64,000 nucleotides of DNA from Clostridia bacterium. Its GTDB lineage: Bacteria > Bacillota > Clostridia > Oscillospirales > UBA644. The stretch spans positions 6,837-70,836 of the forward strand of contig JAGASR010000036.1 in NCBI GenBank assembly GCA_017621705.1, given 5' to 3'. Positions 5,343 to 47,442 of this stretch are shown piece by piece. A program made the position numbers and the translations under genes. How positions within the stretch are numbered: the stretch's first letter is position 1; each line of letters begins with the position of its first letter. Under the pieces are notes generated by a model that saw only the letters and a program-made list of their open reading frames with translations, made no database searches and was not told where the DNA came from.

Positions 5343-5421
5343 AAATTTACCCTCATTCTTTTTTTTAAAATTATAAATAAACATATTGGATTGTTAACGT
5401 AAGCAACAGATAAAAAAAACT

Positions 5422-6009
5422 TTATATTGAAAGGTCGCTTGTTTCATAGAAAGTATCGAATATTTTTTTGAAATCACCGTTATTTTCAAAAAGTATACCG
5501 TCGATACCCGCAAGCTTTGCGCCTTCGAGATTTGATCTGTTATCGTCGATCATAACAACGTCTTCCGCATTAAGACCGACATCAGATAAAACGTACTCGA
5601 AAAATTCTTTGCTCGGCTTTGAAATATGCATCAGGCTTGAGACAAATATTTTATCAAAGAGAGAATAAAGATCGTGTTTTTTAAGGATCCTCTCCAAAAA
5701 CGGATCAATAGCATTTGATAAAAGATATACAGGATATCTTTCTTTCACCTTACGGAGAAATGAAACGAGGTCTTCGTTTATTTCTACAAGGTCATCCCAT
5801 TCGGAACGGATCTGATCTGCGGGAATCCCCGTTCTCTCATAAATACGGCGGTAGGTTTCGTCTTCGTCTATGATCCCTATATCGCCCAAGGAAACAATAT
5901 CTTTTTTTATTTGGTCAGCTTCTTTATCATCAAAATGCCTTCTGAACCATATCGGTGCAATTTCGCAGGAAATTACGCCGAAAAAATCAAAGAAAACAGC
6001 TTTCTTCAT
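5422..6009 (-). CDS. HAD-superfamily hydrolase (subfamily IA-like)
   Basis: N-terminal FFDFFGVI motif I variant, LLSNA, and VMIDDNRSNLEGAKLAGIDGILF motif III/IV. Own TTGAAA-17-TATAAT promoter upstream (about 6040-6070, minus). Confidence 0.7.
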   Translation of the reverse strand: MKKAVFFDFFGVISCEIAPIWFRRHFDDKEADQIKKDIVSLGDIGIIDEDETYRRIYERTGIPADQIRSEWDDLVEINEDLVSFLRKVKERYPVYLLSNAIDPFLERILKKHDLYSLFDKIFVSSLMHISKPSKEFFEYVLSDVGLNAEDVVMIDDNRSNLEGAKLAGIDGILFENNGDFKKIFDTFYETSDLSI

Positions 6010-6105
6010 ATTAATCTCGCCTTATCCTTATAAAATTTATTATTATTCATTATAGCACAAAGCCATACAGATTTCAAGCATTTACGGATATTTTAAGTAA
6101 GACCT

Positions 6106-6135
6106 ATAAAAAACGGACCCTTTATCGGGTCCGTT
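6106..6135 (-). terminator. intrinsic terminator of paralog 3
   Basis: AACGGACCC-gataa-AGGGTCCGTT followed by TTTTT on the minus strand. Confidence 0.8.
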
Positions 6136-6140
6136 CTGAT

Positions 6141-12705: not shown

Positions 12706-14260
12706 TGTCGGTTACCTCCTTTTTTTCGGTTTCGGCGGAAGTTTCGGTCTTTGTCATGAGAAGACCGATCTCTTCTTTGGTGGTATTTCTGCCATCGAGA
12801 ATACCCGTAATACGACCTGCGCAGACTACGAGAATACGGTCGCAGAGTTCAACGAGAACGTCAAGGTCCTCGCCGACGAAGATAACGGAAACACCTTTTT
12901 CTTTCTGTTCGGTAAGAAGATCGTAAATGGTATAGGACGAGTTGATATCAAGGCCTCGGACGGGATAAGCCGCCATAAGAACAGTCGGAGAAGCGGCGAT
13001 CTCACGGCCTACGAGGACTTTCTGAACGTTACCGCCGGAAAGACGGCGAACGGGAGTTTTTGTGCTGGGAGTTGCGACTTCGAGCTCTTCAACGATCTTT
13101 TTCGCAAGGTCGCCGGGTTTTTTACGGTCAACGAATATAGAATGACCTTTGCGGTAGCTTCGAAGCATCATATTATCGACAATATCCATATTGCCGACAA
13201 GGCCCATGCCGAGACGGTCTTCGGGAACGAACGACAGTCTGACACCGAGTTCTCTGATCGCTACGGGATCTTTATCTCGGAGGTCTTCGCTCTCCCCTGT
13301 TTTCGGGTTGTGGTAAATGATCTTACCGGTTACAGGGTGGCAAAGGCCTGCGATAGATTCAAGAAGCTCTCTCTGACCGCTGCCTGCGATACCCGCAATA
13401 CCGAGAATCTCGCCTGCACGAGCGGTAAAAGAAATATTATCGAGAACCTTGATACCTTCGGCATCGACCATGTTAAGGCCCTGAACTTCGAGTCTGTCAC
13501 ATGTATTTTTAGGTTCGGGACGCTTGATATTAAGTTCAACTTTTTTGCCGACCATCATTTCGGTAAGCGCGGAAGCGGTCGTTGTTGCAGTGTCGACAGT
13601 AGCAATGTGTTCACCTTTACGGAGAACGGCTACACGGTCGGAAATAGAAAGAACTTCGTGGAGTTTATGGGTGATGATAAGGATAGATTTTCCGTCTTCA
13701 CGCATACGGCGAAGAACGTCGAAAAGCTTGTCAGTCTCCTGCGGAGTAAGAACTGCGGACGGCTCGTCAAGGATGAGGATATCAGCACCTCTGTAAAGAA
13801 CCTTGAGGATCTCGACGGTCTGCTTTTCGGAAACAGACATTTCGTATATCTTCTTTTTGGGGTCAACGTTAAAACCGTATTTATCTGCAAGTTCCTGAAC
13901 TTTACGGTTTACTTCCTTGATATTGTAACGCTGACCGTTTTTAACACCGAGAACGATATTTTCGGCAGCAGTAAAAAGATCTACCAGTTTGAAATGCTGA
14001 TGGATCATGCCTATTCCGTGACGGAAAGCATCTTTGGGTGAACGGATCACAACTTCCTGACCGTCGACAGAAATCGAGCCGCTGTCAGGATAATAAATGC
14101 CGGCAATCATATTCATAAGGGTCGTCTTACCGCATCCGTTTTCGCCGAGGATCGCAAGGATCTCGCCGCGGTAAACGGTCAGATCGACATTTTTATTTGC
14201 CGCCAGACTGCCAAAATATTTGGAAACGTTTTTCAGTTCCAAAGCAACAGGTTTACTCAT
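12692..14260 (-). CDS. ABC transporter ATP-binding protein with duplicated ATPase domains (NupO/RnsB-like)
   Basis: Walker A GENGCGKTT, signature VSEKQ and LSGGNVQK, Walker B ILILDEP. 522 aa, typical of CUT2/BMP-type double-domain ATPases. RBS GGAGGAAAG. Confidence 0.9.
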   Translation of the reverse strand: MSKPVALELKNVSKYFGSLAANKNVDLTVYRGEILAILGENGCGKTTLMNMIAGIYYPDSGSISVDGQEVVIRSPKDAFRHGIGMIHQHFKLVDLFTAAENIVLGVKNGQRYNIKEVNRKVQELADKYGFNVDPKKKIYEMSVSEKQTVEILKVLYRGADILILDEPSAVLTPQETDKLFDVLRRMREDGKSILIITHKLHEVLSISDRVAVLRKGEHIATVDTATTTASALTEMMVGKKVELNIKRPEPKNTCDRLEVQGLNMVDAEGIKVLDNISFTARAGEILGIAGIAGSGQRELLESIAGLCHPVTGKIIYHNPKTGESEDLRDKDPVAIRELGVRLSFVPEDRLGMGLVGNMDIVDNMMLRSYRKGHSIFVDRKKPGDLAKKIVEELEVATPSTKTPVRRLSGGNVQKVLVGREIAASPTVLMAAYPVRGLDINSSYTIYDLLTEQKEKGVSVIFVGEDLDVLVELCDRILVVCAGRITGILDGRNTTKEEIGLLMTKTETSAETEKKEVTDNENA

Positions 14261-32670: not shown

Positions 32671-34323
32671 ATGGATAATCTTAAGCTTGCGGAACTTCTT
32701 TTTCCGCACATAACAAAAACCACCGAATATTACGAAGAAAAATATCCCCCGAGAAATCTTCCAGAGGGCGCAAGAGTAACCCGTATAGCACCCAGCCCGA
32801 CAGGTTATCTTCATATCGGCGCGCTTTACGGTGCGGTTACCGACGAAAGAACCGCTCACCTTACGAACGGTGTTTTCTATCTCAGAATAGAAGACACAGA
32901 CTCGAAGCGTGAAGTTTCGGGTGCCGCAGACCTTTTCATTACCATGTTCGAAAAATACGGCATGAAATTTGACGAAGGAGCTGTCAGCGGCGGCGACAAA
33001 GGTGACTACGGCCCGTACAGACAGAGCGAAAGAACCGAAATTTACCAGACTTTTGCAAAACAGCTCATCGCAGAAGGCAAGGCATATCCTTGTTTCTGTA
33101 CCGATACCGAGATCGAAAAGATCAGAAACGAGCAGGAAGCCGCAGGCGAAAACCCCGGTTATTACGGTAAATGGGCAGTCTGGAGAGATGCCGAAATAGA
33201 AAAAGTTGAGCAGGCTCTCGCAGAAAAGAAACCGTTCGTTGTTCGTCTCCGTTCGACAGGCGACCCCTCAAAGAGAGTTAAACTCACCGATGCAATAAAG
33301 GGCGACCTCGAATTCCCGCAGAACAATCAGGACTTTGTAATCCTTAAATCGGACGGAACTCCCCCCTACCATTTCGCTCATGCGATCGACGATCATCTTA
33401 TGAGAACGACCCACGTTGTCCGCGGCGAAGAATGGCTCGCTACTCTTCCGTGGCACGTTGAACTTTTTGCGGCTCTCGGCTTCAAACGTCCCGTTTTCTG
33501 CCACACCGCAAATATCATGAAGCTCGATAACGGCTCGAAGAGAAAGATCTCCAAGAGAAAAGACCCCGAAGCGGACGTTGCGATGTTCCTTCGCGAAGGT
33601 TATCCGCAGAGCGCACTTATAGAATACGTTCTCACTCTTCTCAACTCCAACTTTGAAGACTGGCGCAGAGCAAACCCGACCGCAGACAAAAACGAGTTCC
33701 CGTTCTCCTTCAAGAAAATGGGTGTTTCGGGTCCGCTTTTCGACTTTGAAAAACTTTACGATATCTGTAAAGACGTTGTTTCGAGAATGGACGCAGAGAC
33801 CGTTTACGAAAACGTTGTTGCATGGACTGCTGAATACGATCCCGAATTCAATGCGGTTCTGACGAAAGATCCGCAGTACGCAAAAGATATTCTCTCTATC
33901 GGCAGAGGCGGTTCGAAGCCGAGAAAAGACTTTGGTCTCTGGAAAGAAGTCAGAGAATACATGGGCTTTTTCTACAACGAGCTTTTCGCTCCCGAATACT
34001 GCTTCCCCGAAAATCTCGCAAAAGAAGATATCATTGCGGTTCTCGAAAAATATCCGTCCGTATTTGACGAAAACGACGATCAGCAGCAGTGGTTCGAAAA
34101 ACTCAAGACTGTCGCTTCATCTATCGGATTTGCGGCAGATACCAAAGAATACAAGAAAAATCCCGATGCATTCAAAGGCCATGTCGGCGATATCGCAATG
34201 ATGCTGAGAGTTGCGCTTACCGGTAAGCAGGTATCTCCCGATACCTTTGCCGTTATCCGTATTCTCGGAAAAGACGAAATGACAAACAGACTTAAAAAAT
34301 GCATCGATTCTATAAAAGGTTAA
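32671..34323 (+). CDS. gltX: glutamate--tRNA ligase (long form)
   Basis: Class I HIGH motif PSPTGYLHIGAL, RIEDTD, KMSKS-type KISKRK, and PPYHFAHAIDDHLM. Confidence 0.85.
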   Translation: MDNLKLAELLFPHITKTTEYYEEKYPPRNLPEGARVTRIAPSPTGYLHIGALYGAVTDERTAHLTNGVFYLRIEDTDSKREVSGAADLFITMFEKYGMKFDEGAVSGGDKGDYGPYRQSERTEIYQTFAKQLIAEGKAYPCFCTDTEIEKIRNEQEAAGENPGYYGKWAVWRDAEIEKVEQALAEKKPFVVRLRSTGDPSKRVKLTDAIKGDLEFPQNNQDFVILKSDGTPPYHFAHAIDDHLMRTTHVVRGEEWLATLPWHVELFAALGFKRPVFCHTANIMKLDNGSKRKISKRKDPEADVAMFLREGYPQSALIEYVLTLLNSNFEDWRRANPTADKNEFPFSFKKMGVSGPLFDFEKLYDICKDVVSRMDAETVYENVVAWTAEYDPEFNAVLTKDPQYAKDILSIGRGGSKPRKDFGLWKEVREYMGFFYNELFAPEYCFPENLAKEDIIAVLEKYPSVFDENDDQQQWFEKLKTVASSIGFAADTKEYKKNPDAFKGHVGDIAMMLRVALTGKQVSPDTFAVIRILGKDEMTNRLKKCIDSIKG

Positions 34324-34336
34324 GGACATAAATTAT

Positions 34337-35983
34337 ATGGAAGAAACGACTAATTTTATTCACGAAATTATAGATTCCGACCTTGCGGAAGGCAGAGCAA
34401 CGCATATTCATACACGTTTTCCGCCCGAGCCGAACGGTTATCTTCATATCGGCAGCGCGAAAGCAATCTGGATAAACTGGTCTACCGCGCAGAAATACGG
34501 CGGTGAATTCAACCTCCGTTTTGACGACACAAACCCTGTCAAAGAAGATACCGAATACGTTGAAGCTATCGAAAACGACCTCAAATGGCTCGGCGCTGTT
34601 CCCAACGGCGGCATCTATTACGGTTCCGACTATTTCGACAAATGCTATGAATTTGCCATCAAACTCATAAAAGAAGGCAAAGCATACGTTTGCGATCTTT
34701 CGAAAGATGAAATGGAACAGTACCGCGGAACTCTTACCGAACCCGGTAAAAACAGCCCGTACAGAGACCGTTCCGTAGAAGAAAACCTCGATCTTTTCGA
34801 AAGAATGAAAAACGGAGAATTCCCCGACGGTGCAAAGACTCTCCGCGCAAAGATCGATATGGCATCGCCCAATATGAACATGAGAGACCCTGCGATCTAC
34901 AGAATCGTTCATACCTCTCATCACAGACAGGGCAACAAATGGTGCATCTACCCGCTTTACGACTATGCGCACCCCATTCAGGATGCACTTGAAGGCATCA
35001 CCCACTCCCTCTGCTCCATCGAATTTGAAAACCACAGACCTCTTTACAACTGGGTCGTAGACAATATCGATTTTGAAGAAAAGCCGCATCAGTGGGAATT
35101 TGCAAGACTTAACATGACGTATACCGTTATGAGTAAGCGTTATCTTCGTCAGCTCGTAGAAGAAAAGCACGTTGACGGTTGGGACGACCCCCGTATGCCC
35201 ACCCTCTGCGCGCTCAGAAGAAGAGGTTACACTCCTTCTGCGATCTTTGATTTTGTAAAGAGAGCAGGCGTTGCAAAAGCATACAGTATTGTTGATATTC
35301 AGCTTCTTGAGCATTGCATCAGAGAAGAGCTCAACACGACCGCACAGAGAAGAATCGCCGTTCTTGACCCGATCAAGGTAACGATCACAAACTTCCCCGA
35401 AGGCGAGACCGAATATTTCGAAGTTCCCAACAATCCGCAGGATCCCGAAGCAGGTTCGAGAAAAGTTCCGTTCACAAAACATCTTTATATCGACAGAAGC
35501 GACTTTGCGGAAGTTCCGCCGCCGAAATTCTTCAGACTCAAACCCGGCGGAGAAGTCAGACTCATGGGCTCATACATTATTAAATATGAAGATATCGTAA
35601 AAGACGAAAACGGCAATATCGTTGAGATCCTCTGTTCCTGCGACCGTGAAACAGCTGCAGGCGTTCCCGCAGACGGAAGAAAGATCAAAGGAACTATCCA
35701 TTGGCTTTCTCAGGAAACAGCGCTCGATACTACCGTTCATATTTACGACAGACTTTTCACTCTTGAAAATGTATTTGATATTCCTGAAAATTCTTCTATC
35801 ATGGACTATGTAAACCATGATTCTCATACCGTTATAACCAACGCAAAACTCGAACCGGCTCTCGCAGACGCAAAGGCGGAAGAGCATTTCCAGTTTGTAA
35901 GAACAGGCTATTTCGTAAAAGATACAAAAGAAGAAAACAGCTATAATCTTACTGTAAGCTTAAAAGACAGTTATAAGGCTTAA
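34337..35983 (+). CDS. glnS: glutamine--tRNA ligase
   Basis: RFPPEPNGYLHIGSAKAI, LRFDDTNP, YPLYDYAHPIQDALEGITHSLC, and VMSKR are canonical GlnRS motifs. Confidence 0.92.
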   Translation: MEETTNFIHEIIDSDLAEGRATHIHTRFPPEPNGYLHIGSAKAIWINWSTAQKYGGEFNLRFDDTNPVKEDTEYVEAIENDLKWLGAVPNGGIYYGSDYFDKCYEFAIKLIKEGKAYVCDLSKDEMEQYRGTLTEPGKNSPYRDRSVEENLDLFERMKNGEFPDGAKTLRAKIDMASPNMNMRDPAIYRIVHTSHHRQGNKWCIYPLYDYAHPIQDALEGITHSLCSIEFENHRPLYNWVVDNIDFEEKPHQWEFARLNMTYTVMSKRYLRQLVEEKHVDGWDDPRMPTLCALRRRGYTPSAIFDFVKRAGVAKAYSIVDIQLLEHCIREELNTTAQRRIAVLDPIKVTITNFPEGETEYFEVPNNPQDPEAGSRKVPFTKHLYIDRSDFAEVPPPKFFRLKPGGEVRLMGSYIIKYEDIVKDENGNIVEILCSCDRETAAGVPADGRKIKGTIHWLSQETALDTTVHIYDRLFTLENVFDIPENSSIMDYVNHDSHTVITNAKLEPALADAKAEEHFQFVRTGYFVKDTKEENSYNLTVSLKDSYKA

Positions 35984-36015
35984 CAAATAAAAAATTTTTA
36001 TAAGAGGTGCTAAAA

Positions 36016-37188
36016 ATGGATTTTGTACGTTTAGGCATAATCGGTCTTGGTAACATGGGTTCCGGTCATATCGGAAACTACCTCGCAGGCAGACTTAAAA
36101 ATGTTAAAATAACAGCTATCTGCGATATCGACCCCGAAAAACTTGCGGCTGCAAGCGAAAAACTCGGCTCAGAAGTTAAAACATTTGCAACATCCGAAGA
36201 ACTTATCCGTTCCGGCGAAGTTGACGCGATCCTTATCGCTACCCCCCACTATTTCCACCCGACGATCGCTATCGACGGTTTCAAAAACGGACTTCATGTT
36301 CTTTCCGAAAAGCCTGCAGGCGTTTACACCAAGGCTGTTCGTGAAATGAACGAAGTTGCTGAAAAATCCGGCAAAGTTTTCGGTTTGATGTTTAACCAGA
36401 GAACGAACCCTGCATATCAGAAGCTTAAAGAAATGATGGATACAGGTGTACTCGGTGAAATGACAAGAGCTACCTGGATCATTACCGACTGGTACAGAAC
36501 TCAGGCATACTACAACTCCGGCGGATGGCGTGCTACATGGGCAGGCGAAGGCGGCGGCGTTCTTCTCAACCAGTGCCCCCACCAGATCGACCTCATGCAG
36601 TGGATCTGCGGCGTTCCGAAGAGAGTTTTTGCACAGGCTGATTTCGGTATGTACCACGATATCGAAGTTGAAGACAACGTAACCGCTGTTTACGAATACG
36701 AAAACGGTGCGAAAGGTCTTTTCGTTACAACCACAGGCGAATACCCCGGTACAAACAGATTTGAAGTTTCCGGCGACCTCGGTAAAGTTGTTATCGAGCA
36801 CGGTAAATTTACCTATTACAAAAACAACGGCTCCGTTAAGGCAAATACAATGGGCGGAGATAACGGTTTCGGCGGTCTCAGTTGCGAAAAAGAAGAGATC
36901 GTTTTTGATAACGGCGGCGAACAGCACGTCGGCATCCTCAACAACTTTGTTGACTGCATCCTCAACGGCACTCCCCTCCTCGCTCCCGGTGTTGAAGGTA
37001 TCAGAGGTCTTACGGTTTCCAACGCTATGCATCTTTCCGCTTGGACAGGCGGCTGGGTAGACGTTCCGTTCGACGAAGATAAATTCTACGATATTCTCAA
37101 AGAAAAAATCGAAACTTCGAGATATGTAAAACCCGAAACTACTTCGAAAGCTGCTGTTGATATTTCCAACACATACGGAAACAAATAA
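36016..37188 (+). CDS. Gfo/Idh/MocA family oxidoreductase, copy 1
   Basis: N-terminal Rossmann motif LGIIGLGNMG, then EKP. Start moved to ATG 36016, 6 nt after AAGAGGTG. Confidence 0.85.
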   Translation: MDFVRLGIIGLGNMGSGHIGNYLAGRLKNVKITAICDIDPEKLAAASEKLGSEVKTFATSEELIRSGEVDAILIATPHYFHPTIAIDGFKNGLHVLSEKPAGVYTKAVREMNEVAEKSGKVFGLMFNQRTNPAYQKLKEMMDTGVLGEMTRATWIITDWYRTQAYYNSGGWRATWAGEGGGVLLNQCPHQIDLMQWICGVPKRVFAQADFGMYHDIEVEDNVTAVYEYENGAKGLFVTTTGEYPGTNRFEVSGDLGKVVIEHGKFTYYKNNGSVKANTMGGDNGFGGLSCEKEEIVFDNGGEQHVGILNNFVDCILNGTPLLAPGVEGIRGLTVSNAMHLSAWTGGWVDVPFDEDKFYDILKEKIETSRYVKPETTSKAAVDISNTYGNK

Positions 37189-37209
37189 GCAAAAAAAGAG
37201 GTGTCTGTA

Positions 37210-38382
37210 ATGGAAAACGTCCGTTTAGGCATAATCGGCCTCGGCAACATGGGTTACAGCCATGTAAAAAACTATGTTACGGGCAAACTTAAAAACGTTA
37301 AACTGACAGCGATTTGCGACATCGACGAAAAGAGACTCGAAATCGTCAGCAAAGAGCTCGGTCCCGAAGTTAAAACATACAATACATCCGAAAAACTTAT
37401 CCGTTCGGGAGAAGTTGATGCGATAGTTATTGCAACTCCGCACTATTTCCATCCCCCGATCGCTATTGACGGTTTCAAAAACGGACTTCACGTTTTAACC
37501 GAAAAGCCTGCAGGGGTTTACACCAAAGCTGTTCGTGAAATGAATGCGGAAGCGGAAGCATCTGGCAAAGTTTTCGGAATCATGTATAATCAGAGAACGA
37601 ATCCCGCGTATCAGAAGCTCAAAGCAATGGTTGAAAGCGGCGAACTCGGCGAGTTGACAAGAGTTGTCTGGATCATTACCGACTGGTACAGAACCCAGGC
37701 ATACTACAATTCGGGCGGCTGGCGCGCAACCTGGGCAGGCGAAGGCGGCGGCGTTCTTCTCAATCAGTGTCCTCACCAGATCGATCTTATGCAGTGGATC
37801 TGCGGCGTTCCGAAACGTGTTTTTGCAAAAGCTGAATTCGGTAAATTTCATAATATTGAAGTTGAAGACTGCGTTACTGCGATGTACGAATACGAAAACG
37901 GCGCTACGGGTATGTTCATGACGACAACGGGCGAATTTCCCGGAACGAACAGACTCGAGATCGCAGGAGACCTCGGAAAAGTCGTTATCGAAGGCGGCAA
38001 GTTCATTCATTATAAGAACAGTACTTCCGTCAGAGAAAACACGATGGACACATCCTCAAGATATGTCGGTCCGACTTGCGAAGTCGAAGAGATCAAGTTT
38101 GACAATGCGGGCGAACAGCACGCAGGTATAATGAACAACTTTATCGATTCTATAATCAACGGCACTCCCCTCCTCGCTCCAGGTATCGAGGGCATAAGAG
38201 GTCTTACCGTTTCAAATGCTATGCATCTTTCGGCATGGACAGGCGACTGGGTGGAAATTCCGTTCGATGAAGATAAATATTATGATCTTCTGAAAGAAAA
38301 GATCGATAATTCAACATTTGTCAAACCCGAAGTTGCTCCCGGCTCTGTTGAAGAAATTTCGGGAACGTACTCAAATAATTAA
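37210..38382 (+). CDS. Gfo/Idh/MocA family oxidoreductase, copy 2 (tandem paralog)
   Basis: Same length and motifs as copy 1. There are long identical stretches (WIITDWYRTQAYYNSGGWRATWAGEGGGVLLNQCPHQIDLMQWICGVPKRVFA). ATG 37210 lies 6 nt after an identical AAGAGGTG RBS. Confidence 0.85.
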   Translation: MENVRLGIIGLGNMGYSHVKNYVTGKLKNVKLTAICDIDEKRLEIVSKELGPEVKTYNTSEKLIRSGEVDAIVIATPHYFHPPIAIDGFKNGLHVLTEKPAGVYTKAVREMNAEAEASGKVFGIMYNQRTNPAYQKLKAMVESGELGELTRVVWIITDWYRTQAYYNSGGWRATWAGEGGGVLLNQCPHQIDLMQWICGVPKRVFAKAEFGKFHNIEVEDCVTAMYEYENGATGMFMTTTGEFPGTNRLEIAGDLGKVVIEGGKFIHYKNSTSVRENTMDTSSRYVGPTCEVEEIKFDNAGEQHAGIMNNFIDSIINGTPLLAPGIEGIRGLTVSNAMHLSAWTGDWVEIPFDEDKYYDLLKEKIDNSTFVKPEVAPGSVEEISGTYSNN

Positions 38383-39737: not shown

Positions 39738-39768
39738 AAAACAGCCCTTTAAAAGGGCTGTTTTTTTA
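39738..39768. terminator. bidirectional terminator
   Basis: CAGCCC-tttaaaa-GGGCTG followed by TTTTTTT. It lies between the convergent MATE and DUF3021 genes. Confidence 0.7.
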
Positions 39769-40188
39769 CTTCAGATTTTCATTAAGTCGGCTTCCGAGAG
39801 TTCTGATGCAGATAAAAACCGTTATCCACACGATAAAATAAACGACAACAAATATGAGCGAAAAAATAAGAAGGACTGCAGGCTCGAAGGGGATCCATGA
39901 ATTGATTATATAACAAAGGCTATATGAAACATAAAGCGATAAAAAATGGACAAAAAGCGATTTTGCGATCGGCCAATGCTCGATCTGATTGAAAATACTG
40001 GCCCCCGCGTGGACGAATGCAAGAATATAAGTAGAAACGATACTCGTAAAAACATCCGTTCCGCTGAGACTGAAATCATCGAGTGTGAGATGTATGATCA
40101 AAAAAACGATGCCGCAAATTATCGGGCCGAAACCTCCGAACATCATACCTCTGATAAAAAATTCTTTCATATAACTGTTTTTTCTCAT
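39766..40188 (-). CDS. DUF3021-like small membrane protein
   Basis: 140 aa with 4 TM helices. ATGA overlap with the upstream LytTR gene. This pairing is characteristic of DUF3021. Confidence 0.65.
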   Translation of the reverse strand: MRKNSYMKEFFIRGMMFGGFGPIICGIVFLIIHLTLDDFSLSGTDVFTSIVSTYILAFVHAGASIFNQIEHWPIAKSLFVHFLSLYVSYSLCYIINSWIPFEPAVLLIFSLIFVVVYFIVWITVFICIRTLGSRLNENLK

Positions 40189-40622
40189 TTTAAACCTATC
40201 CTTTCTTTAACTCTTTTAACTTGACGACGGGAAACATAATCTTTATATCCGTTTTTTAATATTACGGTCAATGAGCCGCCGAGAGAAGCGCCGAACTTTG
40301 AAATTTTGCGGATATTGCAAAGACACGACTGATTGATCTTCACAAAATCAGCCGAAACGAGCTCTTCGATCTCATAAAGCCGTTGATTTATTCTGAATTT
40401 TCCGCTGTCCGTCAAAGCATAGATCTTGTTTTCTTCAACGATAAAACAATAAATTTCCGTTACGAAAAGCTTTACGGTATCGCGGTTTTCGTCATAGCCG
40501 AGAAGCTCCGTCTCGATATTTGAAATATACGATTCTATATCTTCGATCTGTTTTGTTCGCTGTTTTGCATAAATAAGTACTTTTTCTTCACATGAATTAT
40601 CTATGATCGTCTGAAATTTCAT
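40185..40622 (-). CDS. LytTR-family DNA-binding protein (no receiver domain)
   Basis: Start moved to MKFQTIIDN (ATG 40620-40622) after AAAGGAGGAAG. C-terminal LytTR pattern FVKINQSCLCNIRKI...LKNGYKDYVSRRQVKRVKE. Confidence 0.75.
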   Translation of the reverse strand: MKFQTIIDNSCEEKVLIYAKQRTKQIEDIESYISNIETELLGYDENRDTVKLFVTEIYCFIVEENKIYALTDSGKFRINQRLYEIEELVSADFVKINQSCLCNIRKISKFGASLGGSLTVILKNGYKDYVSRRQVKRVKERIGLK

Positions 40623-40749
40623 TTGTCTTCCTCCTTTGATAACAGTATACCACAACCGATTTTTTTGTCAACGGTTTCAGAGCGTTCGGTCAATTTGAAA
40701 ATGTAAGCGGTAAAATATCCGATTATTTCAAAAAAACAAAAAAGTTATA

Positions 40750-40778
40750 TTGACTTTTGATGATTGCTGTGATATAAT
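40750..40778 (+). promoter_or_regulatory. sigmaA-type promoter of the riboswitch-led operon
   Basis: TTGACT (40750-40755), 17 nt, TGaTATAAT (TATAAT 40773-40778). Confidence 0.7.
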
Positions 40779-40794
40779 TTCGTTGTTAATCAAA

Positions 40795-41052
40795 TATTGC
40801 AATACGGTTCGGGCGATGCCCGATAAGAGGGAAGTTCGGTGCAAATCCGTCGCAACTGCCATTACCGTAAAAGTCGGAAAACTCACCGTAAAAGCAAGGC
40901 AAGAAACATTTTTGGGCAAAGAAGAATGCAGCCGTTTCGGAATAACAGGATAGGTGTACCCTTTTATATCTTTGCTTCAAACTTTTGCCTGCAATTCAAT
41001 GAAACAGTTGCGTCTTCTTCGGTAAAAACGGAGAAAGACGCTTTTTTTGTTT
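40795..41052 (+). promoter_or_regulatory. cobalamin (B12) riboswitch with terminator-type expression platform
   Basis: Core strings AAGAGGGAAGTTCGGTGCAAATCCG, CGCAACTGCC and AAGTCGGAAAAC..CACCG, with possible P1 ACGGT (40804-40808) / ACCGT (40885-40889). Downstream hairpin GCGTCTTCTTC...GAGAAAGACGC plus TTTTTTT (about 41009-41048). Downstream genes encode DUF4430 and ECF proteins. Confidence 0.7.
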
Positions 41053-41066
41053 TGAAAGGAACGCAA

Positions 41067-41342
41067 ATGAGCGAGAAATTTGACAGGCAATCGTGTATAT
41101 CTCTGTTGAAAGAAAAGAAAAAAGAACTTGATGCCGCAGGCGATGACCGTTTTCCGAAAAGATCGGATTTTACGGAAGAACAGATCGTTGCGATCAAAGC
41201 GTTTCTGGGACCGTGGCCGAGAGCACTCGAGGAATCAGGCTTAAAGCAAGCCGACCCGAACAGAGAGACAGACAAAATGCAGAAAAGAATTGCGTTAAAA
41301 CGTAAAAAAACAGAGATCAAAAAGGTAAAAAAGGGCTCATGA
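41067..41342 (+). CDS. small basic protein, unknown function (possible homing-endonuclease-associated-repeat-like motif)
   Basis: The ORF 40839..41342 N-terminus lies in the riboswitch. Start moved to MSEKFDRQ (ATG 41067) after GAAAGGAA. Motif RFPKRSDFTEEQIVAIKAFLGPWPRALEESGLK and a K-rich tail. Confidence 0.55.
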   Translation: MSEKFDRQSCISLLKEKKKELDAAGDDRFPKRSDFTEEQIVAIKAFLGPWPRALEESGLKQADPNRETDKMQKRIALKRKKTEIKKVKKGS

Positions 41343-41398
41343 CCGTGTTTTTAACCTTTTTAAGGTAAAATAAAAAAACAAAAAGGAATGATCTCAAA

Positions 41399-42184
41399 AT
41401 GAAAAAAATTATCAGAATTATGATCGTCTTGGCGATGCTCTTCACCCTTTGCGCTGTCCCGATGGCGGCACAAGGCGTTGAAGTCACGGTAACGATCGCA
41501 AACGGCGATATTATGGTTCACGACACAGTTTCCGTATCGGATGCTGACGGCGACGGTGTTATCTCCATTGCCGATGCTCTCTATGCGGCACACGAAGAAA
41601 ATTACGACGGCGGCGCAAGCGCAGGTTTCGGCACAGAAGATACCCAATGGGGCATCTCGCTCATGAAACTTTGGGGCGTTGAAAACGGCGGAAGCTACGG
41701 CTATCAGATAAACAACGGCAACCCGATGAGCCTTGCTGATCCCGTTAAAGACGGCGACTACGTTTACGCTTACGTTTATACCGATACCGTCGGTTTTTCC
41801 GATACTTACACTTTCTTTAACGAACTTACCGTTAAAGCCACAGAAGGTCAGTCCATTGATCTTACTCTTTCTGCCGCAGGTTACGATGAAAACTGGGCAC
41901 CGATAACTCTTCCCGTTGAAGGCGCAGTTATTACCGTTAACGGCGAAAAGACAGAATTTGTAACCGATGCAGAAGGTAAAGTTTCTGTCAAAATCGACGA
42001 AGCAGGCGAATACACAATCAGCGCTGTATCCGAGACCATGACTCTCGTTCCCCCTGTTTGCACTGCGACCGTTACGGCTGAGTCTAACCCCTCAACTTCC
42101 GACAGCGATATGATGATCTTTGCAGTCACCGCGATCGTTGCAATCGGCGCTGTCATGATGATAAGAAAAAAGGAATGTAAATGA
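41399..42184 (+). CDS. secreted DUF4430-domain protein with Ig-like domain and C-terminal TM anchor
   Basis: Signal peptide MKKIIRIMIVLAMLFTLCAVPMAAQG. DUF4430-like pattern VTVTIANGDIMV...ISIADALYAAH...YGYQINNGNPMSLADPVKDGDYVYAY. C-terminal MMIFAVTAIVAIGAVMMIRKK. Confidence 0.7.
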   Translation: MKKIIRIMIVLAMLFTLCAVPMAAQGVEVTVTIANGDIMVHDTVSVSDADGDGVISIADALYAAHEENYDGGASAGFGTEDTQWGISLMKLWGVENGGSYGYQINNGNPMSLADPVKDGDYVYAYVYTDTVGFSDTYTFFNELTVKATEGQSIDLTLSAAGYDENWAPITLPVEGAVITVNGEKTEFVTDAEGKVSVKIDEAGEYTISAVSETMTLVPPVCTATVTAESNPSTSDSDMMIFAVTAIVAIGAVMMIRKKECK

Positions 42185-43842
42185 GAAATAAGATAATATC
42201 CGTTATTTTAGCGGTAATTTTTATCTGCGCATCACTCGGAATATCTACATTTGCTCAAATGAATACCGTCGGGGAGATCAATGATCTCCTCGACGATATT
42301 GTTGCTTTTAACCTTAACAAAGAAAACGAGAATGATACGCTTAAATGGCTCGCAAGCGGCGCGGGAAACGGAACCGAATTTTACGCAATTGCATTTTCAC
42401 AGAGGATCCCAGAATCTTCTCCGAGTTCGAGATACGATCTTTCGGATTTTGCGAAAGCAATGGAGAAGTTTCTTGACGAAAACGAAGTAAAAAATGCGGT
42501 AACAAAGCAGAAATACGCACTTTCGCTTATTGCGTCGGGCAAGGAAGACTCAAAATACGTTAACGAAATAACTAATTCAACGATCGGCGAGCTCGGAATA
42601 ATGAGCTTCGTTTTCGGTCTTCATCTTTTGAATAACGGTGCGGTTAGCGAAACACATACTGTCGAGACTGTTACAGACAAGCTTCTTTCTCTTCAGCTTG
42701 AAGACGGCGGATGGGCTTTGACGGGACAGTATTCGGACGTTGATATAACGGCGATGACCGTTCAGGCTCTTGCTCCGCACAGAGAAACGAATGATGAGAT
42801 TTCTGCGGCAATCGACAAAGCGATAGCGACGTTATCTCAAAAACAGTTTGACGACGGTGATTTTGCAAGTTACGGTGTTGCAAATCCGGACAGCGTAGCA
42901 CAGGTCATGATAGCTTTAACGTCTGTCGGTATAGATCCGTTAAGCGATGAAAGATTTATAAAAAACGAAAAAACGGTTCTTGACGGCATAAAAAAATATA
43001 TGCTCGAAGACGGAAGTTTCAAGCATACCGAAGACGGCGAATCAAACTACATGGCGACATACCAGGTTTTTCTCGGACTTACGGCGCTGAACAGATTTTA
43101 CGCAGACAAGGGTTCCCTTTTCATCTTTGAAGAGGAAGAGGAACCTATTATCACAGAAGATCCCGTTGAAAACGAACCGGAAAAAGAAGAAACCGTTGAA
43201 CAAAAAGAACCTGAAAAAATTGAGGAAGATATCCCCGAAGAGCCGCCTGTCAAAGACATTGTAAATATAAAGAGCGGCGGATACAAGCTTTGGGTAAGCG
43301 TGGCGGTGGCAGGAATTGCCGTTATTCTGATGATAATATGCGTCATCAAAAAGCAAAAAACAGGCACTTTTATTTTGATCGCGGCAGCGGCGACGTTGGT
43401 TATATGCATAGTATTTTTTACTGATATTCAGACGGCTGACAACTACTACTCGGCGGTCCCCGAAAAAGGTGAAACGGTCGGCACTGTTACAATGCAGATC
43501 CGTTGCGATAAGATCAAAGATCAGCAAGCGGATCATATTCCCGAAGACGGCGTAATCCTTGATACGACTGAATTTGCGATCGATTCGGACGACACGGTCT
43601 ACGATATCCTTACAGAGGCGGCAAGGAAATATACTTTACACCTTGAAAGCACCGGCGGTGACGGAATGAAATATATGTCCGGTATCAATTATATTTATGA
43701 ACTTGCATACGGCGATCTTTCGGGATGGGTTTATCTTGTCAACGGAGAAAGACCGTCTGTCGGATGCGATGCATACAAATTAAGCGACGGAGACGTCATT
43801 GAGTGGCACTACTCGCTCGAACTCGGCAACGATATTGACTGA
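42181..43842 (+). CDS. membrane protein with alpha/alpha-toroid (prenyltransferase/squalene-oxidase-repeat) domain, acidic linker, TM hairpin and C-terminal DUF4430 domain (transcobalamin-like architecture)
   Basis: Signal/anchor MRNKIISVILAVIFICASLGISTFA. Repeats LQLEDGGWA, KQFDDGDFA, MLEDGSFKH. E-rich linker, then two TM helices (YKLWVSVAVAGIAVILMIICVI, FILIAAAATLVICIVFF). C-terminal TVYDILTEAARKY...SGINYIYELAYGDLSGWVYLVNGERPSVGCDAYKLSDGDVIEWHYS is a strong DUF4430 pattern. Confidence 0.75.
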   Translation: MRNKIISVILAVIFICASLGISTFAQMNTVGEINDLLDDIVAFNLNKENENDTLKWLASGAGNGTEFYAIAFSQRIPESSPSSRYDLSDFAKAMEKFLDENEVKNAVTKQKYALSLIASGKEDSKYVNEITNSTIGELGIMSFVFGLHLLNNGAVSETHTVETVTDKLLSLQLEDGGWALTGQYSDVDITAMTVQALAPHRETNDEISAAIDKAIATLSQKQFDDGDFASYGVANPDSVAQVMIALTSVGIDPLSDERFIKNEKTVLDGIKKYMLEDGSFKHTEDGESNYMATYQVFLGLTALNRFYADKGSLFIFEEEEEPIITEDPVENEPEKEETVEQKEPEKIEEDIPEEPPVKDIVNIKSGGYKLWVSVAVAGIAVILMIICVIKKQKTGTFILIAAAATLVICIVFFTDIQTADNYYSAVPEKGETVGTVTMQIRCDKIKDQQADHIPEDGVILDTTEFAIDSDDTVYDILTEAARKYTLHLESTGGDGMKYMSGINYIYELAYGDLSGWVYLVNGERPSVGCDAYKLSDGDVIEWHYSLELGNDID

Positions 43843-43875
43843 TTTTACGTAAAACAAATGAAAGGAGGAACAGAT

Positions 43876-44754
43876 ATGAAAGCTTTTGACGGATATAATC
43901 CGATCGCAGTCTTTATTTATTATGCGGCGGTTGTGAGCGTTGGAATGTTCTGCATGAACCCGTGGATTATCGGATTTTCACTCGTCGGCGCGCTTGTGAC
44001 GTTCTTTATCCGCAACAAACTTTCGGGCGCAAAATCGCATTTGTTCTTCCTTTTAATGTTTGCCGTGATGGTAATAATAAACCCTCTTTTCAATCATAAC
44101 GGCGTTACGGTTTTGCTCGTAATAAACGATAATCCGATAACCCTAGAAGCGATAATTTACGGCATAGCATCGGGCGCAATGATAATCGGAATAATCTACT
44201 GGTTCCGCTCATTTTCGCAGATAATGACGAGTGATAAACTGCTTTATCTGCTCGGAAGCATCTCTCCGAAATTTGCGCTGATCCTTTCGATGACACTTAG
44301 GTATATTCCCCTTTTCGAAAAGCAGACACAAAAAGTCGTACATGCACAGCAAGCTTTAGGCCTTTACAGAGATGATGATTTTCTCAGCAAGATCAGAGGA
44401 GGAATAAGGGTCTTTTCGGTAATGGTAACATGGGTTCTGGAAAACGGAGTGATAACCTCGGACAGCATGACGGCACGCGGTTACGGAATTACGAAACGCA
44501 CACATTTTTCGATTTTCAAATTCAGAAGGCATGATATTATTTTAACGGTAACGACGGTGATCCTTTTCGCCGTAATGCTTCCTACGCTGATAACGGGCGC
44601 AATAAATTTTGAATACTATCCGAAGATCGTCGGAGAAGAAACAACGGTCTTTTCGGTACTCGCATATATTTCATACGGAATTCTGGCATTTTTACCGACT
44701 ATAACGGAAGCGGAGGAGAAGATAAGATGGAAATACTTAAAATCGAAGATCTGA
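43876..44754 (+). CDS. ECF transporter transmembrane (T) component, CbiQ family
   Basis: Start moved to ATG 43876 after AAAGGAGG. Polytopic. C-terminal ARG-type coupling motif SDSMTARGYG. Confidence 0.8.
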   Translation: MKAFDGYNPIAVFIYYAAVVSVGMFCMNPWIIGFSLVGALVTFFIRNKLSGAKSHLFFLLMFAVMVIINPLFNHNGVTVLLVINDNPITLEAIIYGIASGAMIIGIIYWFRSFSQIMTSDKLLYLLGSISPKFALILSMTLRYIPLFEKQTQKVVHAQQALGLYRDDDFLSKIRGGIRVFSVMVTWVLENGVITSDSMTARGYGITKRTHFSIFKFRRHDIILTVTTVILFAVMLPTLITGAINFEYYPKIVGEETTVFSVLAYISYGILAFLPTITEAEEKIRWKYLKSKI

Positions 44755-46361
44755 GCTTTTCATACCCGCTTTGCGAGAAAAAAGCGCTGAAAAATATTTC
44801 TTTTACGGTAGAGCGCGGAGATTTTGTGACTGTTTGCGGCGCCACGGGAAGCGGTAAATCGACCCTTATGCGTATGCTCAAAAAAGAGCTCATACCGCTC
44901 GGCGAATTGACGGGTAAAGTATACTATAAAGGCAAAGACCTTGACACATTAAGCGAAAAAGAGACGACGTGTTCGATCGGATTTGTAGCACAGCGACCCG
45001 AAGAGCAGATCGTTACGGATAAAGTCTGGCACGAACTTGCGTTCGGTCTTGAAAATATGGGACTGCCGAAAGACGTTATAAGAAGACGTGTTTCGGAAAT
45101 GACATGTTATTTCGGAATAGAGGACTGGTTCGAAAAGAGCGTAAACGAGCTTTCGGGCGGTCAGAAGCAGCTATTGAACCTCGCATCCGTAATGGTCATG
45201 CAGCCCGATATCTTGATTCTGGACGAACCGACAGCACAGCTTGACCCGATTGCGGCATCGGACTTTATCGCAACGCTTTCAAAGTTAAACAGAGATCTTT
45301 CGCTGACGGTCGTTATTACCGAACACAGACTCGAAGACGTCATCCCCGCCGGAAACAAGCTCCTTGCAATGGAAAACGGAGAGATCGTCAAATACGGAGA
45401 AACGAGATCGGCAATCAGCGCGCTTTACGGCAACAAAACGCTTATCGAAGGCATGCCCGCGGCTGTTAGGATCTTCAATAATTTCGAGATCAACACCCCC
45501 TGCCCTCTTACGGTCAGGGAAGGACGCGATTTTATCGAAAAGAATTTCAGCAACGAAATTCGGTCTGCAGACAAAAAAGAGCAGAAAAACGAGAAAAAAG
45601 ATGCCGTTCTTGAATTTTCGGACGTTTATTTCAGATACGAACGCGATCTTCCGGATATTCTTCGCGGACTTGACTTTACCGTATACGAAAACGAGATATT
45701 CTGCATCCTCGGAGGCAATGGGTCGGGTAAATCGACGAGCCTTTCCGCGGCGGCAGGCATCAATAAGCCGTATTCCGGAAATATAAAGGTTTTCGGTAAG
45801 AAGATAAAGGATTATAAAAACGGAGATCTTTATAAAAACTGTCTGTCTCTTTTGCCGCAGGACGTTCAGACCGTATTTTTAAAGAATACGGTAAAAGAGG
45901 AGCTTGCGGATGTGAATATGGACACATCGGATCTTCCGTATGACCTTTCCGAGCTTAACGAGAGACATCCCTACGATATTTCGGGCGGACAGCAGCAACT
46001 TCTTGCGCTTGCGAAAGTGCTTTCGACGAAGCCGAAACTTCTGCTTCTGGACGAGCCGACAAAAGGTCTCGATGCTTATGCGAAAAAGTCGATAATGGAC
46101 GTACTCAAAAAGCTCCGCGCCCTCGGAATGACGATCGTTTGCGTAACGCACGACGTTGAATTTGCGGCAGACTGCGCAGACAGATGCGCAATGTTTTTCA
46201 GAGGAGAGATAACATCGTGCTCTTCCCCGAAAGAATTTTTCTCCGGCAACAGTTTTTACACTACTGCGGCAAACAGAATGACGCGCGGTTATTACGGCGG
46301 AGTGACGACGGTTGCGGATGCCGTTGAAATAATGAAAAAGAACGGAGCGGCGACGAAATGA
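44727..46361 (+). CDS. ECF transporter ATPase, fused EcfA1-EcfA2
   Basis: Two Walker A motifs (GATGSGKST, GGNGSGKST), two signatures (LSGGQKQ, ISGGQQQ) and two Walker B motifs (LILDEPT, LLLDEPT). 28-nt overlap with the T gene. Confidence 0.9.
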   Translation: MEILKIEDLSFSYPLCEKKALKNISFTVERGDFVTVCGATGSGKSTLMRMLKKELIPLGELTGKVYYKGKDLDTLSEKETTCSIGFVAQRPEEQIVTDKVWHELAFGLENMGLPKDVIRRRVSEMTCYFGIEDWFEKSVNELSGGQKQLLNLASVMVMQPDILILDEPTAQLDPIAASDFIATLSKLNRDLSLTVVITEHRLEDVIPAGNKLLAMENGEIVKYGETRSAISALYGNKTLIEGMPAAVRIFNNFEINTPCPLTVREGRDFIEKNFSNEIRSADKKEQKNEKKDAVLEFSDVYFRYERDLPDILRGLDFTVYENEIFCILGGNGSGKSTSLSAAAGINKPYSGNIKVFGKKIKDYKNGDLYKNCLSLLPQDVQTVFLKNTVKEELADVNMDTSDLPYDLSELNERHPYDISGGQQQLLALAKVLSTKPKLLLLDEPTKGLDAYAKKSIMDVLKKLRALGMTIVCVTHDVEFAADCADRCAMFFRGEITSCSSPKEFFSGNSFYTTAANRMTRGYYGGVTTVADAVEIMKKNGAATK

Positions 46362-47044
46362 TAACGATAAAAAATGCCGCTCTTCGAAAAGTTTTAAAAA
46401 TAATCATTCCGTTTTTGCTTGTACCTTTGGCGCTTGCGATCGGAATATTCGTCCTTGAAGAAAAAAGTTACACTTTCATCAGCATTGCGGTAAGTATTCT
46501 TGCTCTCGTTCTTTTCATAAGCGGTTTTGAGAAGAAAAAGACGGGCACTCGCAGGCTGGTTATCGTTGCGGTCATGACGGCGCTTTCGGTCGTCGGAAGA
46601 TTTATTCCGCTGTTTAAACCGATAACTGCGCTTACAGTCATAACAGCGGTCTATATCGGCGGCGAGGCAGGATTTCTCGTCGGTGCGATGTCTGCGTTGG
46701 TTTCAAATTTCTGGTTCGGCCAGGGACCGTGGACACCTTTTCAGATGTTTGCATGGGGAATGATCGGTCTTATAGGCGGCCTTCTTTCAAAATATCTGAA
46801 AAAAAGTCATGCTCTTCTGATAATATACGGTGTGTTTTCAGGAATCGTTTACTCGTTTGTAATGGACTTATGGGCAGTGCTTTGGCATAACGATGTTCTG
46901 ACTGCGGAAATCTACATTGCGGCGCTCGTAACGGCGATACCGTATACGGTAATCTATTCCGTTTCAAACATGATTTTCTTTGCCCTGCTAGCAAAACCGT
47001 TCGGAGAGAAATTGGAAAGAGTAAAGTTGAAGTACGGAGTGTAA
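46358..47044 (+). CDS. ECF transporter substrate-specific (S) component, candidate corrinoid-specific
   Basis: 228 aa with about 6 TM helices. ATGA overlap with the ATPase gene. Last gene of the riboswitch-led operon. Confidence 0.7.
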   Translation: MITIKNAALRKVLKIIIPFLLVPLALAIGIFVLEEKSYTFISIAVSILALVLFISGFEKKKTGTRRLVIVAVMTALSVVGRFIPLFKPITALTVITAVYIGGEAGFLVGAMSALVSNFWFGQGPWTPFQMFAWGMIGLIGGLLSKYLKKSHALLIIYGVFSGIVYSFVMDLWAVLWHNDVLTAEIYIAALVTAIPYTVIYSVSNMIFFALLAKPFGEKLERVKLKYGV

Positions 47045-47051
47045 AAAACTG

Positions 47052-47084
47052 AAGGAACCGCACAAGAATGCGGTTCCTTATTGC
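47052..47084. terminator. bidirectional terminator
   Basis: AAGGAACCGCA-caagaa-TGCGGTTCCTT followed by ATT. Confidence 0.75.
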
Positions 47085-47094
47085 ATTTACTCTG

Positions 47095-47412
47095 TTATTC
47101 TAAACAAATATGTCTGTTGCTACTGACGATCTCAATTTGAATATCTTTTTCGAAAGATGATTCGTAGTGTTTAAATCGTCTCAAAATCGATATCATTTTT
47201 TCTGCTGCATCTTCGAATTCACGTTCAATAACATCAAGACCGATAATTTCGATGAAAATCGGTTCACCATACATATCTGTCAGGCAATCCCAAAACGCAT
47301 CCCAATTACAACCGTAATAATCGGGAAAATCCAACGATACCTGAATAATCTTATGCATCTCCATATAATATTTAACATTGCTGAAATTGATCGTATATTT
47401 CTTTTGACTCAT
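47095..47412 (-). CDS. barstar-family (barnase inhibitor) immunity protein, orphan
   Basis: The motif LDFPDYYGCNWDAFWDCLTD matches the barstar-family signature (fPdYyG.NlDAlwDcLtd). Start is at the second ATG (47410-47412) or the first (47413-47415), after AGGAGAG. Confidence 0.75.
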   Translation of the reverse strand: MSQKKYTINFSNVKYYMEMHKIIQVSLDFPDYYGCNWDAFWDCLTDMYGEPIFIEIIGLDVIEREFEDAAEKMISILRRFKHYESSFEKDIQIEIVSSNRHICLE

Positions 47413-47442
47413 CATACTCTCCTAAGGTATATTGGTTAACAG

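Follow-up and report, generated by a model that had tools for sequence, protein, structure and literature searches.

Bacterial transcobalamin-like SLBB proteins were described in 2007 by Burroughs, Balaji, Iyer and Aravind, who reported them with signal peptides, Gram-positive anchors, and toroid and immunoglobulin (Ig) fusions (PMC1796856). Paired paralogues were found in one operon with CbiO/CbiQ neighbors, and a role in B12 scavenging was predicted from the domain architectures and gene neighborhoods; the carriers were prevalent among Gram-positive bacteria with a low GC content and usually had no B12 biosynthesis genes, and it was suggested that animals acquired transcobalamin from this group (PMC1796856). 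In this study, we have analyzed an operon of six genes (g1 to g6), preceded by a leader RNA, in a 64-kb stretch of a Clostridia bacterium genome (contig JAGASR010000036.1 of assembly GCA_017621705.1), referred to here as the window. The operon encodes two surface proteins, g2 and g3, and an energy-coupling factor (ECF) transporter, g4 to g6. We consider it likely that this is a self-contained, corrinoid-repressed operon for the capture and import of vitamin B12 (cobamides) in an uncultured Oscillospiraceae-type Clostridium; the capture-and-import role had been proposed in a first-pass annotation of the window, and it is now supported computationally by riboswitch homology, the predicted fold of g3, a CbrT-like g6 and a conserved gene set.

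Three further systems are relevant. In Lactobacillus sakei, Verplaetse et al. studied the operon lsa1836-1840, which encodes an S component, a fused AA' ATPase, EcfT, and secreted transcobalamin (TC)-beta-like and TC-alpha-like proteins; it had first been automatically annotated as a cobalamin transport operon, and deletion and complementation pointed to heme uptake (bioRxiv 10.1101/864751). The ECF-CbrT complex of Lactobacillus delbrueckii (6FNP; Santos et al. 2018) transports both cobalamin and cobinamide in proteoliposome assays and is not inhibited by hemin (PMC5997447). In Bacteroides thetaiotaomicron, the riboswitch-controlled, high-affinity surface binders BtuG, BtuH and BtuJ capture cobamides and pass them to the transporter BtuB (PMC8941943, PMC13616437). 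A 2026 review nevertheless calls extracellular cobamide capture in Gram-positive bacteria "entirely uncharacterized" and leaves bacterial transcobalamin-like proteins unmentioned (PMC13616437).

The gene combination is therefore not uncharacterized, as the first-pass annotation had supposed, since it was predicted in 2007 (PMC1796856) and its L. sakei counterpart has been studied experimentally (bioRxiv 10.1101/864751). The operon is best regarded as an addition to a widespread type that was already predicted, with a putative role in B12 binding. Three of its details appear to be undescribed: a transcobalamin split by a transmembrane hairpin, a dedicated g1, and an aptamer without the P6 hairpin that is seemingly under selection.

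Operon layout and comparison with described systems

The consensus promoter called in the first-pass annotation (Table 1) is borne out; it is the top plus-strand site in the 8-kb region scanned, and both of its hexamers are kept in two orthologous loci, L001 and L002. It is followed by a leader of about 290 nucleotides (nt) in which the terminator hairpin and U-tract that had been claimed are confirmed by sequence and fold, the two 13-nt stem arms forming 12 pairs with one bulge. The window holds six same-strand genes, not the seven that were announced, and six is also the number in the annotation's own product list. The junctions between the genes had been read correctly: genes overlap by ATGA at 42181 and 46358, and by 28 nt at 44727. 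At the 3' end, where a strong terminator was claimed at 47052-47084, there is indeed a hairpin (47052-47079), but its plus-strand tail, ATTGCATTTA, is weak and the good T-run, CAGTTTTTTA, is on the minus strand. Because of this T-run, the hairpin is probably a bidirectional terminator common to g6 and the convergent barstar gene.

Table 1. Features of the operon and its leader, in window coordinates (g3 domains in residues)
Feature	Position	Strand	Description
Sigma-70-type promoter	40750-40778	+	TTGACT, 17 nt, TATAAT, extended -10 TG; 11/12 matches
Cobalamin-clan aptamer	40788-40904	+	Short type without P6 hairpin; from comparative covariance models
Aptamer P1	40803-40808 paired with 40885-40890	+	
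Aptamer P2	40809-40814 paired with 40818-40823	+	
B12-box-like segment	40871-40887	+	AAGTCGGAAAACTCACC
Linker/expression-platform region	40905-41009	+	Between aptamer and terminator; long hairpin in minimum-free-energy structure
Leader intrinsic terminator	41010-41053	+	Stem 41010-41022 paired with 41029-41041, then TTTTTTTGTTTT (41042-41053)
g1	41067-41342	+	91 aa; first gene of operon
g2	41399-42184	+	261 aa; secreted surface protein
g3	42181-43842	+	553 aa; membrane-tethered transcobalamin-like protein
g3 domains	Residues 1-553		Signal peptide 1-26; alpha/alpha-toroid about 30-320; acidic disordered linker 321-365; transmembrane hairpin 370-390 and 396-414; DUF4430 beta-domain about 430-553
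g4	43858-44754	+	298 aa; EcfT, CbiQ-type transmembrane coupling subunit
g5	44727-46361	+	544 aa; fused EcfA-EcfA' ATPase with two ABC_tran domains
g6	46358-47044	+	228 aa; CbrT-like ECF S component
GC-rich hairpin	47052-47079	.	11-12 bp; between convergent g6 and barstar genes

With the SLBB clade of 2007 the operon shares a signal peptide, a putative Gram-positive anchor, an SLBB-toroid fusion, Ig fusions, a second extracellular protein, CbiO/CbiQ neighbors and a predicted part in B12 scavenging; unlike what was reported in that purely computational study, it is predicted to be under riboswitch control, has a CbrT-type S component, joins toroid and SLBB domain by a transmembrane hairpin, and includes g1 (PMC1796856). 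The beta-grasp domain of g2 has diverged too far to be assigned to that clade by sequence methods. When compared by published description, lsa1836-1840 has the same five-component inventory (S, AA', T, TC-beta-like and TC-alpha-like), but there the alpha and beta parts lie on two proteins and no riboswitch is reported, whereas in the window they are fused in g3 through the transmembrane hairpin, and the operon adds g1 and the putatively wall-anchored beta-like/Ig protein g2.

The transporter resembles ECF-CbrT in combining EcfT, two ATP-binding cassette (ABC) ATPase domains and an S component (PMC5997447). However, CbrT is a group II system that draws on a general, shared ECF module and has no extracytoplasmic partners (PMC5997447), whereas the module in the window is dedicated, its ATPases are fused, g6 is extended by about 60 aa, and two surface proteins belong to its transcription unit. 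The animal carriers transcobalamin, intrinsic factor and haptocorrin likewise pair an alpha6/alpha6 toroid with a beta-grasp and have the DUF4430 beta-domain in common with g3; they are soluble and contiguous, unlike g3, in which the two domains are parted by a disordered acidic linker and the transmembrane hairpin. The likeness to the Bacteroides binders is functional only. BtuG, BtuH and BtuJ are outer-membrane lipoproteins of beta-propeller, DUF4465 and other types that feed a TonB-dependent transporter, in contrast to the Gram-positive, ECF-linked proteins described here; Pfam families of the BtuG/BtuH/BtuJ type are unmatched in g2 and g3, and the top Foldseek matches of both are unrelated to them.

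Evidence for the proposed corrinoid capture and import

The regulatory part of the evidence comes from orthologous loci. When a genome collection was searched with the g3 family profile, 350 species-level relatives were obtained and 80 loci retained. In 7 of 16 orthologous loci, RF00174 was matched at the Rfam gathering threshold, with 37-103 bits, directly 5' of the operon, and a covariance model (R1) was built from these seven leaders, with the window left out. With R1, the leader in the window scores 77.5 bits (E = 1e-16), and 54 loci are matched at E < 1e-6, all on the plus strand and 150-450 nt upstream of the operon's first gene; at the same position in eight Ruminococcus-type loci that are weak with R1, RF01689 (AdoCbl-II) scores above its threshold. 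A solid cobalamin-clan aptamer, in the form of long RF00174, short RF00174 or RF01689, is thus present in 62 of the 76 loci with upstream sequence. When 25 short-type leaders were aligned, the consensus structure had 29 pairs, 18 of them with compensatory changes, and the core columns were invariant. The cmscan alignment of RF00174 to the window leader spans model positions 1-189, including the core motifs (P1-P5, the GGGAA junction and the B12 box), and an intrinsic terminator lies downstream of the aptamer, as expected of the expression platform of a cobalamin riboswitch. These alignments show homology between the leader and bona fide cobalamin riboswitches in front of orthologous operons.

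The long form of RF00174 occurs in L058, L021, L038 and L039, the short form in L049, L035 and L007, and RF01689 in L066, L043, L071, L033, L026, L042, L074 and L076. The presence of three aptamer types before one uptake system suggests either aptamer turnover or differing selectivity for corrinoid forms. L008 has a second strong cobalamin riboswitch match (13096-13295, plus strand; 135.7 bits with R1) about 1.2 kb downstream of the operon, and there was no convincing open reading frame behind it.

Among the surface proteins, the first-pass annotation assigned DUF4430 to the 553-aa g3, and PF14478 matches residues 470-545 at 60.7 bits, against a cut-off of 23.8 (E = 1.9e-16). An AlphaFold2 (AF2) model made from 32 family members has a mean predicted local distance difference test score (pLDDT) of 82.7, and its top 15 Foldseek matches in the PDB are all transcobalamin, intrinsic factor or haptocorrin (E = 3e-8 to 8e-6), aligned over about 550 columns and across both domains. 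The comparison with transcobalamin and intrinsic factor that had been recommended as a check therefore goes further than the DUF4430 label; in its predicted structure, g3 has the two-domain toroid and beta-domain architecture of the transcobalamin family. Aligned identity is about 11-13%, and the high root mean square deviation (rmsd) reflects a different relative placement of the domains in the model. The AF2 model and hydropathy place a cytoplasmic KKQK loop between the two transmembrane helices; because of the signal peptide and this hairpin topology, the toroid and the beta-domain are both predicted to lie outside the cell, tethered at the membrane. The g3 family comprises 14,620 clusters at 50% identity (E <= 1e-3).

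In the second surface protein, g2, a signal peptide is followed by a beta-grasp domain at the N terminus (about residues 27-130) and then by an Ig-like domain (about 136-226), and the protein ends in an LPXTG-like sorting signal. In its AF2 model (pLDDT 85.9), the N-terminal domain matches the human transcobalamin beta-domain 5no0 (Foldseek E = 1e-3, template-modeling score 0.64, rmsd 3.1 A, 20% identity), a likeness of the predicted model only, and a further match is to Rib/Ig domains (E = 4e-4). The order of secondary structure elements in the modeled N-terminal domain, beta-beta-alpha-hairpin-beta-beta, is consistent with the defining order of the transcobalamin-like SLBB clade (PMC1796856). 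The earlier description of g2 as secreted and anchored at its C terminus fits the signal peptide and the LPXTG-like signal, but the motif itself is degenerate in the window (NPSTSD, a hydrophobic segment at 235-258, then RKK); homologues read PxTG[DN], and 5 of 32 match PF00746. The family comprises 1,867 clusters. Some g2 homologues (P0147 and P0159) end in a type I dockerin in place of the LPXTG-like anchor, an arrangement by which a putative B12-binding module would sit on the scaffold of a cellulosome.

The transporter genes were correctly named in the first-pass annotation as a CbiQ-type EcfT, a fused EcfA and an S component, all of which score above curated Pfam or NCBIfam cut-offs. g4 matches PF02361 (CbiQ) at 28 bits against a cut-off of 25, and its best PDB sequence match is the L. 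delbrueckii EcfT chain 5d3m_D, also present in 6fnp (E = 4e-6). g5 matches PF00005 twice (E = 1.8e-55) and TIGR04520 at 326.9 bits (cut-off 315), and g6 matches PF07155 at 48.1 bits (cut-off 26.7). Among sequences of the PDB, the best match of g6 is CbrT itself (6fnp_A, E = 5.8e-10; residues 60-227 of g6 against residues 5-177 of the 182-residue chain), followed among S components by 4hzu_S at E = 0.049; among solved structures, g6 is thus nearest to CbrT by sequence. The proposed six-transmembrane S component stands as regards its CbrT-like core, but an N-terminal extension of about 60 aa before that core adds extra hydrophobic segments. EcfT, both EcfA domains and the S component are encoded together in one operon, as in group I (dedicated) ECF transporters.

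These genes also stay together. About 70 of the 80 species-level loci keep the genes in the order g2-g3-EcfT-EcfAA'-S, between flanks that are entirely different. The operon is carried by uncultured members of the Oscillospiraceae, Lachnospiraceae, Ruminococcus and related Clostridia that were sampled from gut and rumen.

The small first gene, g1, encodes a basic protein with one PF18780 "homing-endonuclease-associated repeat" at 22.6 bits, below the cut-off of 26; hydropathy reveals no signal peptide and no hydrophobic segment. Its family comprises 978 clusters, many with a precomputed PF18780 match, and it is the first operon gene in about 40 of the 80 loci and in 3 of 3 further contexts. 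We propose that g1 is a conserved cytoplasmic accessory protein of the operon.

We infer corrinoid as the ligand, its binding by g2 and g3, its hand-off to g6 and the direction of regulation, and envisage a sequence of steps as follows. At high intracellular levels, corrinoid would bind the aptamer and transcription would end at the leader terminator; at low levels, read-through would occur into the six translationally coupled genes. Outside the cell, g3 would serve as a bacterial transcobalamin, its outward-facing toroid and DUF4430 domains clamping the corrinoid between them in the manner of transcobalamin, intrinsic factor and haptocorrin. From an anchor in the cell wall, g2 could present a second transcobalamin-beta-like domain on its Ig-like stalk as an outer capture or relay element. 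The corrinoid would then be handed to g6 and imported with ATP by the dedicated EcfT and fused EcfAA', and g1 would have an accessory role in the cytoplasm.

Counterevidence and alternative explanations

A number of observations weigh against the reading of this operon as a corrinoid-repressed B12 uptake system, and the first group concerns the leader. A whole-window Rfam scan returned no family at its gathering score, and RF00174 aligned to 40789-40904 with 28.5 bits, below the gathering score of 31.5 (E = 3.1e-5 in a local search of 801 nt). At the thresholds used, eight of the loci with upstream sequence yielded no aptamer. P6 is reduced to 2 nt only in the window, L001 and L002, compared with a hairpin of 15-28 nt in the other short-type leaders, and the low Rfam score of the window leader is explained by this deletion. 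Because the aptamer scores below the Rfam threshold and is without P6, a component of the canonical four-way junction, a response to the ligand is not guaranteed in this organism. On the RF00174 search recommended in the first-pass annotation alone, the riboswitch call would be borderline; it is upheld by the comparison with orthologous loci.

One explanation may be that the P6-less leader is a decayed remnant, blind to corrinoids, of an operon that is constitutive or otherwise regulated and still serves B12 uptake. The restriction of P6 loss to three leaders, the sub-threshold RF00174 score and a whole-leader fold energy that is not unusual (z = -1.2) fit such a history. Decay is, however, unlikely when the window is compared with L002: the promoter hexamers, the aptamer core, the terminator and much of the linker (especially its 5' half) are conserved, and the leader is better conserved than the proteins, which are 52-65% identical; in addition, there are compensatory changes in P1 (ACGGT/ACCGT versus ACGAT/ATCGT) and in the terminator stem. 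Because of this conservation and these compensatory changes, the reduced leader RNA appears to be under purifying selection. Loss of P6 would turn the four-way junction into a three-way one, and the P6-less aptamer may be a functional minimal variant; it offers a naturally minimized cobalamin aptamer for work on RNA structure and function. The P6-less site lies at 40868-40873 in the window, at about 4551-4556 in L001 and at about 5714-5719 in L002, in three fairly divergent genomes.

The surface proteins also leave points on the debit side. PF01122, the eukaryotic cobalamin-binding protein family, is unmatched in g3 at E <= 0.01, and the alpha-domain of g3 is nearer in sequence to terpene-cyclase toroids than to transcobalamin; when phmmer and the g3 family profile were run against PDB sequences, only terpene-cyclase toroids and no transcobalamin were found. 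At the level of sequence, kinship of g3 to the animal carriers is accordingly seen in the beta-domain only. The alpha/alpha-repeat that had been claimed for g3 is present as a toroid in the predicted fold, but the Pfam prenyltransferase and squalene-cyclase matches stay below threshold. As for g2, it had been called a DUF4430 protein, and every sequence test was negative: PF14478 is unmatched in g2 and in all 32 family members at E <= 1, hhalign of the full and cropped family alignments against the g3 beta-domain gave probabilities of only 7-14%, BLASTP of the g2 N-terminal domain against the g3 beta-domain was negative, and the g2 family profile gave no DUF4430 link among PDB sequences. The N-terminal domain of g2 is transcobalamin-beta-like by predicted fold only, and the likeness is modest.

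The toroid of g3 (window 42181-43140) matches the repeats of squalene-hopene cyclase and drimenyl-diphosphate synthase with a profile E of about 3e-9, a kinship of relevance to how the animal B12 carriers arose. An enzymatic role as a terpene cyclase or prenyltransferase was considered and rejected, since the Pfam matches are below threshold and the domain is extracellular, fused to a B12-type beta-domain and encoded behind a B12 riboswitch. The segment DVDITA (residues 186-191) recalls the DXDDTA motif of squalene-hopene cyclase; the profile puts it on a different cyclase repeat, and no inference was drawn from it.

A second alternative concerns what the surface proteins do. It can be envisioned that g2 and g3 sequester or store corrinoids at the surface, as a form of competitive hoarding, or serve some other surface role, while an ECF-CbrT-type transporter takes up free corrinoid alone. 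ECF-CbrT does work without an extracytoplasmic binding protein (PMC5997447), five of the loci have riboswitch, g2 and g3 without an adjacent ECF module, and the dockerin on some g2 homologues would place them on the cellulosome, away from the membrane. Against this, about 70 of 80 loci keep g2 and g3 in order with the ECF genes and translationally coupled to them, and the transmembrane hairpin holds both domains of g3 at the plane of the membrane, beside the expected position of the S component. We therefore regard a role apart from import as quite unlikely, and delivery of corrinoid by g2 and g3 to the transporter as the preferred reading.

The third alternative is set by the literature. No biochemical study of B12 binding by bacterial transcobalamin-like proteins was found in the literature searched, and the sole experimentally studied operon with the same gene set, lsa1836-1840, has been linked to heme uptake and not to B12. 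The window operon might accordingly import heme or another non-corrin tetrapyrrole, with heme bound by the transcobalamin-like proteins and a heme-specific S component. In L. sakei, deletion of lsa1836-1840 lowered the signal of a heme sensor and the uptake of 57Fe-hemin, overexpression raised both, and Lsa1839 and Lsa1840 were modeled as TC beta- and alpha-like proteins; however, heme binding rested on docking, and the authors left the question of heme versus cobalamin specificity open (bioRxiv 10.1101/864751). A heme-specific system is also hard to square with a cobalamin-clan riboswitch of three aptamer types in 62 of 76 loci, and transport by CbrT, to which g6 is nearest, shows no inhibition by hemin (PMC5997447). 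For the window operon, we consider heme import very unlikely, and corrinoid import remains the explanation that we favor.

A final point against a B12 role is the setting of the operon, as nothing else in the window is B12 related; the 20 flanking genes scanned for B12 biosynthesis or B12-dependent functions included none.

Significance, variant loci and neighboring genes

Among the members of gut and rumen communities, cobamides are a currency that is competed for. The operon type is found in at least 350 species-level genomes, and because of this spread and the more than 14,000 g3 clusters, it is a strong candidate for the missing cobamide-capture system of Gram-positive Clostridia. A bolder extension is that gut and rumen Clostridia capture extracellular cobamides mainly through this operon family, which would be built as a three-tier relay of g2, the split transcobalamin g3 and ECF-CbrT, with the PF18780 protein g1 in a new role and, in this lineage, a functional P6-less three-way-junction aptamer; taken as a whole, this picture is possible and we put it forward only tentatively. 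With g3, human transcobalamin and intrinsic factor gain a bacterial counterpart that is tractable and may be related to their ancestor, and the operon gives a direct route to resolving heme versus B12 for ECF systems of the L. sakei type. Current understanding is not overturned by these results. The overall picture will come as no surprise to the specialist; rather, the 2007 prediction is turned into concrete, testable constructs, and the locus makes an acknowledged question directly testable.

Departures from the common gene order take several forms. In L021, L038, L061 and L067 the operon is rearranged, with riboswitch-g1-EcfT-EcfAA'-S followed by g2-g3, and in L022 about 1.5 kb of extra sequence (4804-6351) lies between g1 and g2. 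The loci without adjacent ECF genes are L060, L064, L073, L077 and L078, in which the g2-g3 pair may work with a transporter encoded elsewhere, or alone.

In the window, the operon is flanked by housekeeping genes unrelated to it, namely those for glutamyl- and glutaminyl-tRNA synthetase (GluRS/GlnRS), oxidoreductases, MATE, DUF3021/LytTR, barstar, GH3, RadA and Spo0A. The LytTR and DUF3021 pair is divergent from the operon and directly upstream of it (39766-40655, minus strand), and a similar pair is found about 1.3 kb downstream of g2-g3 in L060 (9947-10805, plus strand) and L078 (7421-8279, plus strand); this proximity could be chance or a loose association. On the other side, a barstar (barnase-inhibitor) gene adjoins the operon (47095-47415, minus strand), and no barnase-like gene turned up among the neighboring genes scanned. 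Farther upstream, on the plus strand, there are two tandem pairs of paralogues, at 32671-35983 and 36007-38382: two genes of the class I Glu/Gln-tRNA-synthetase family and two GFO/IDH/MocA oxidoreductase genes.

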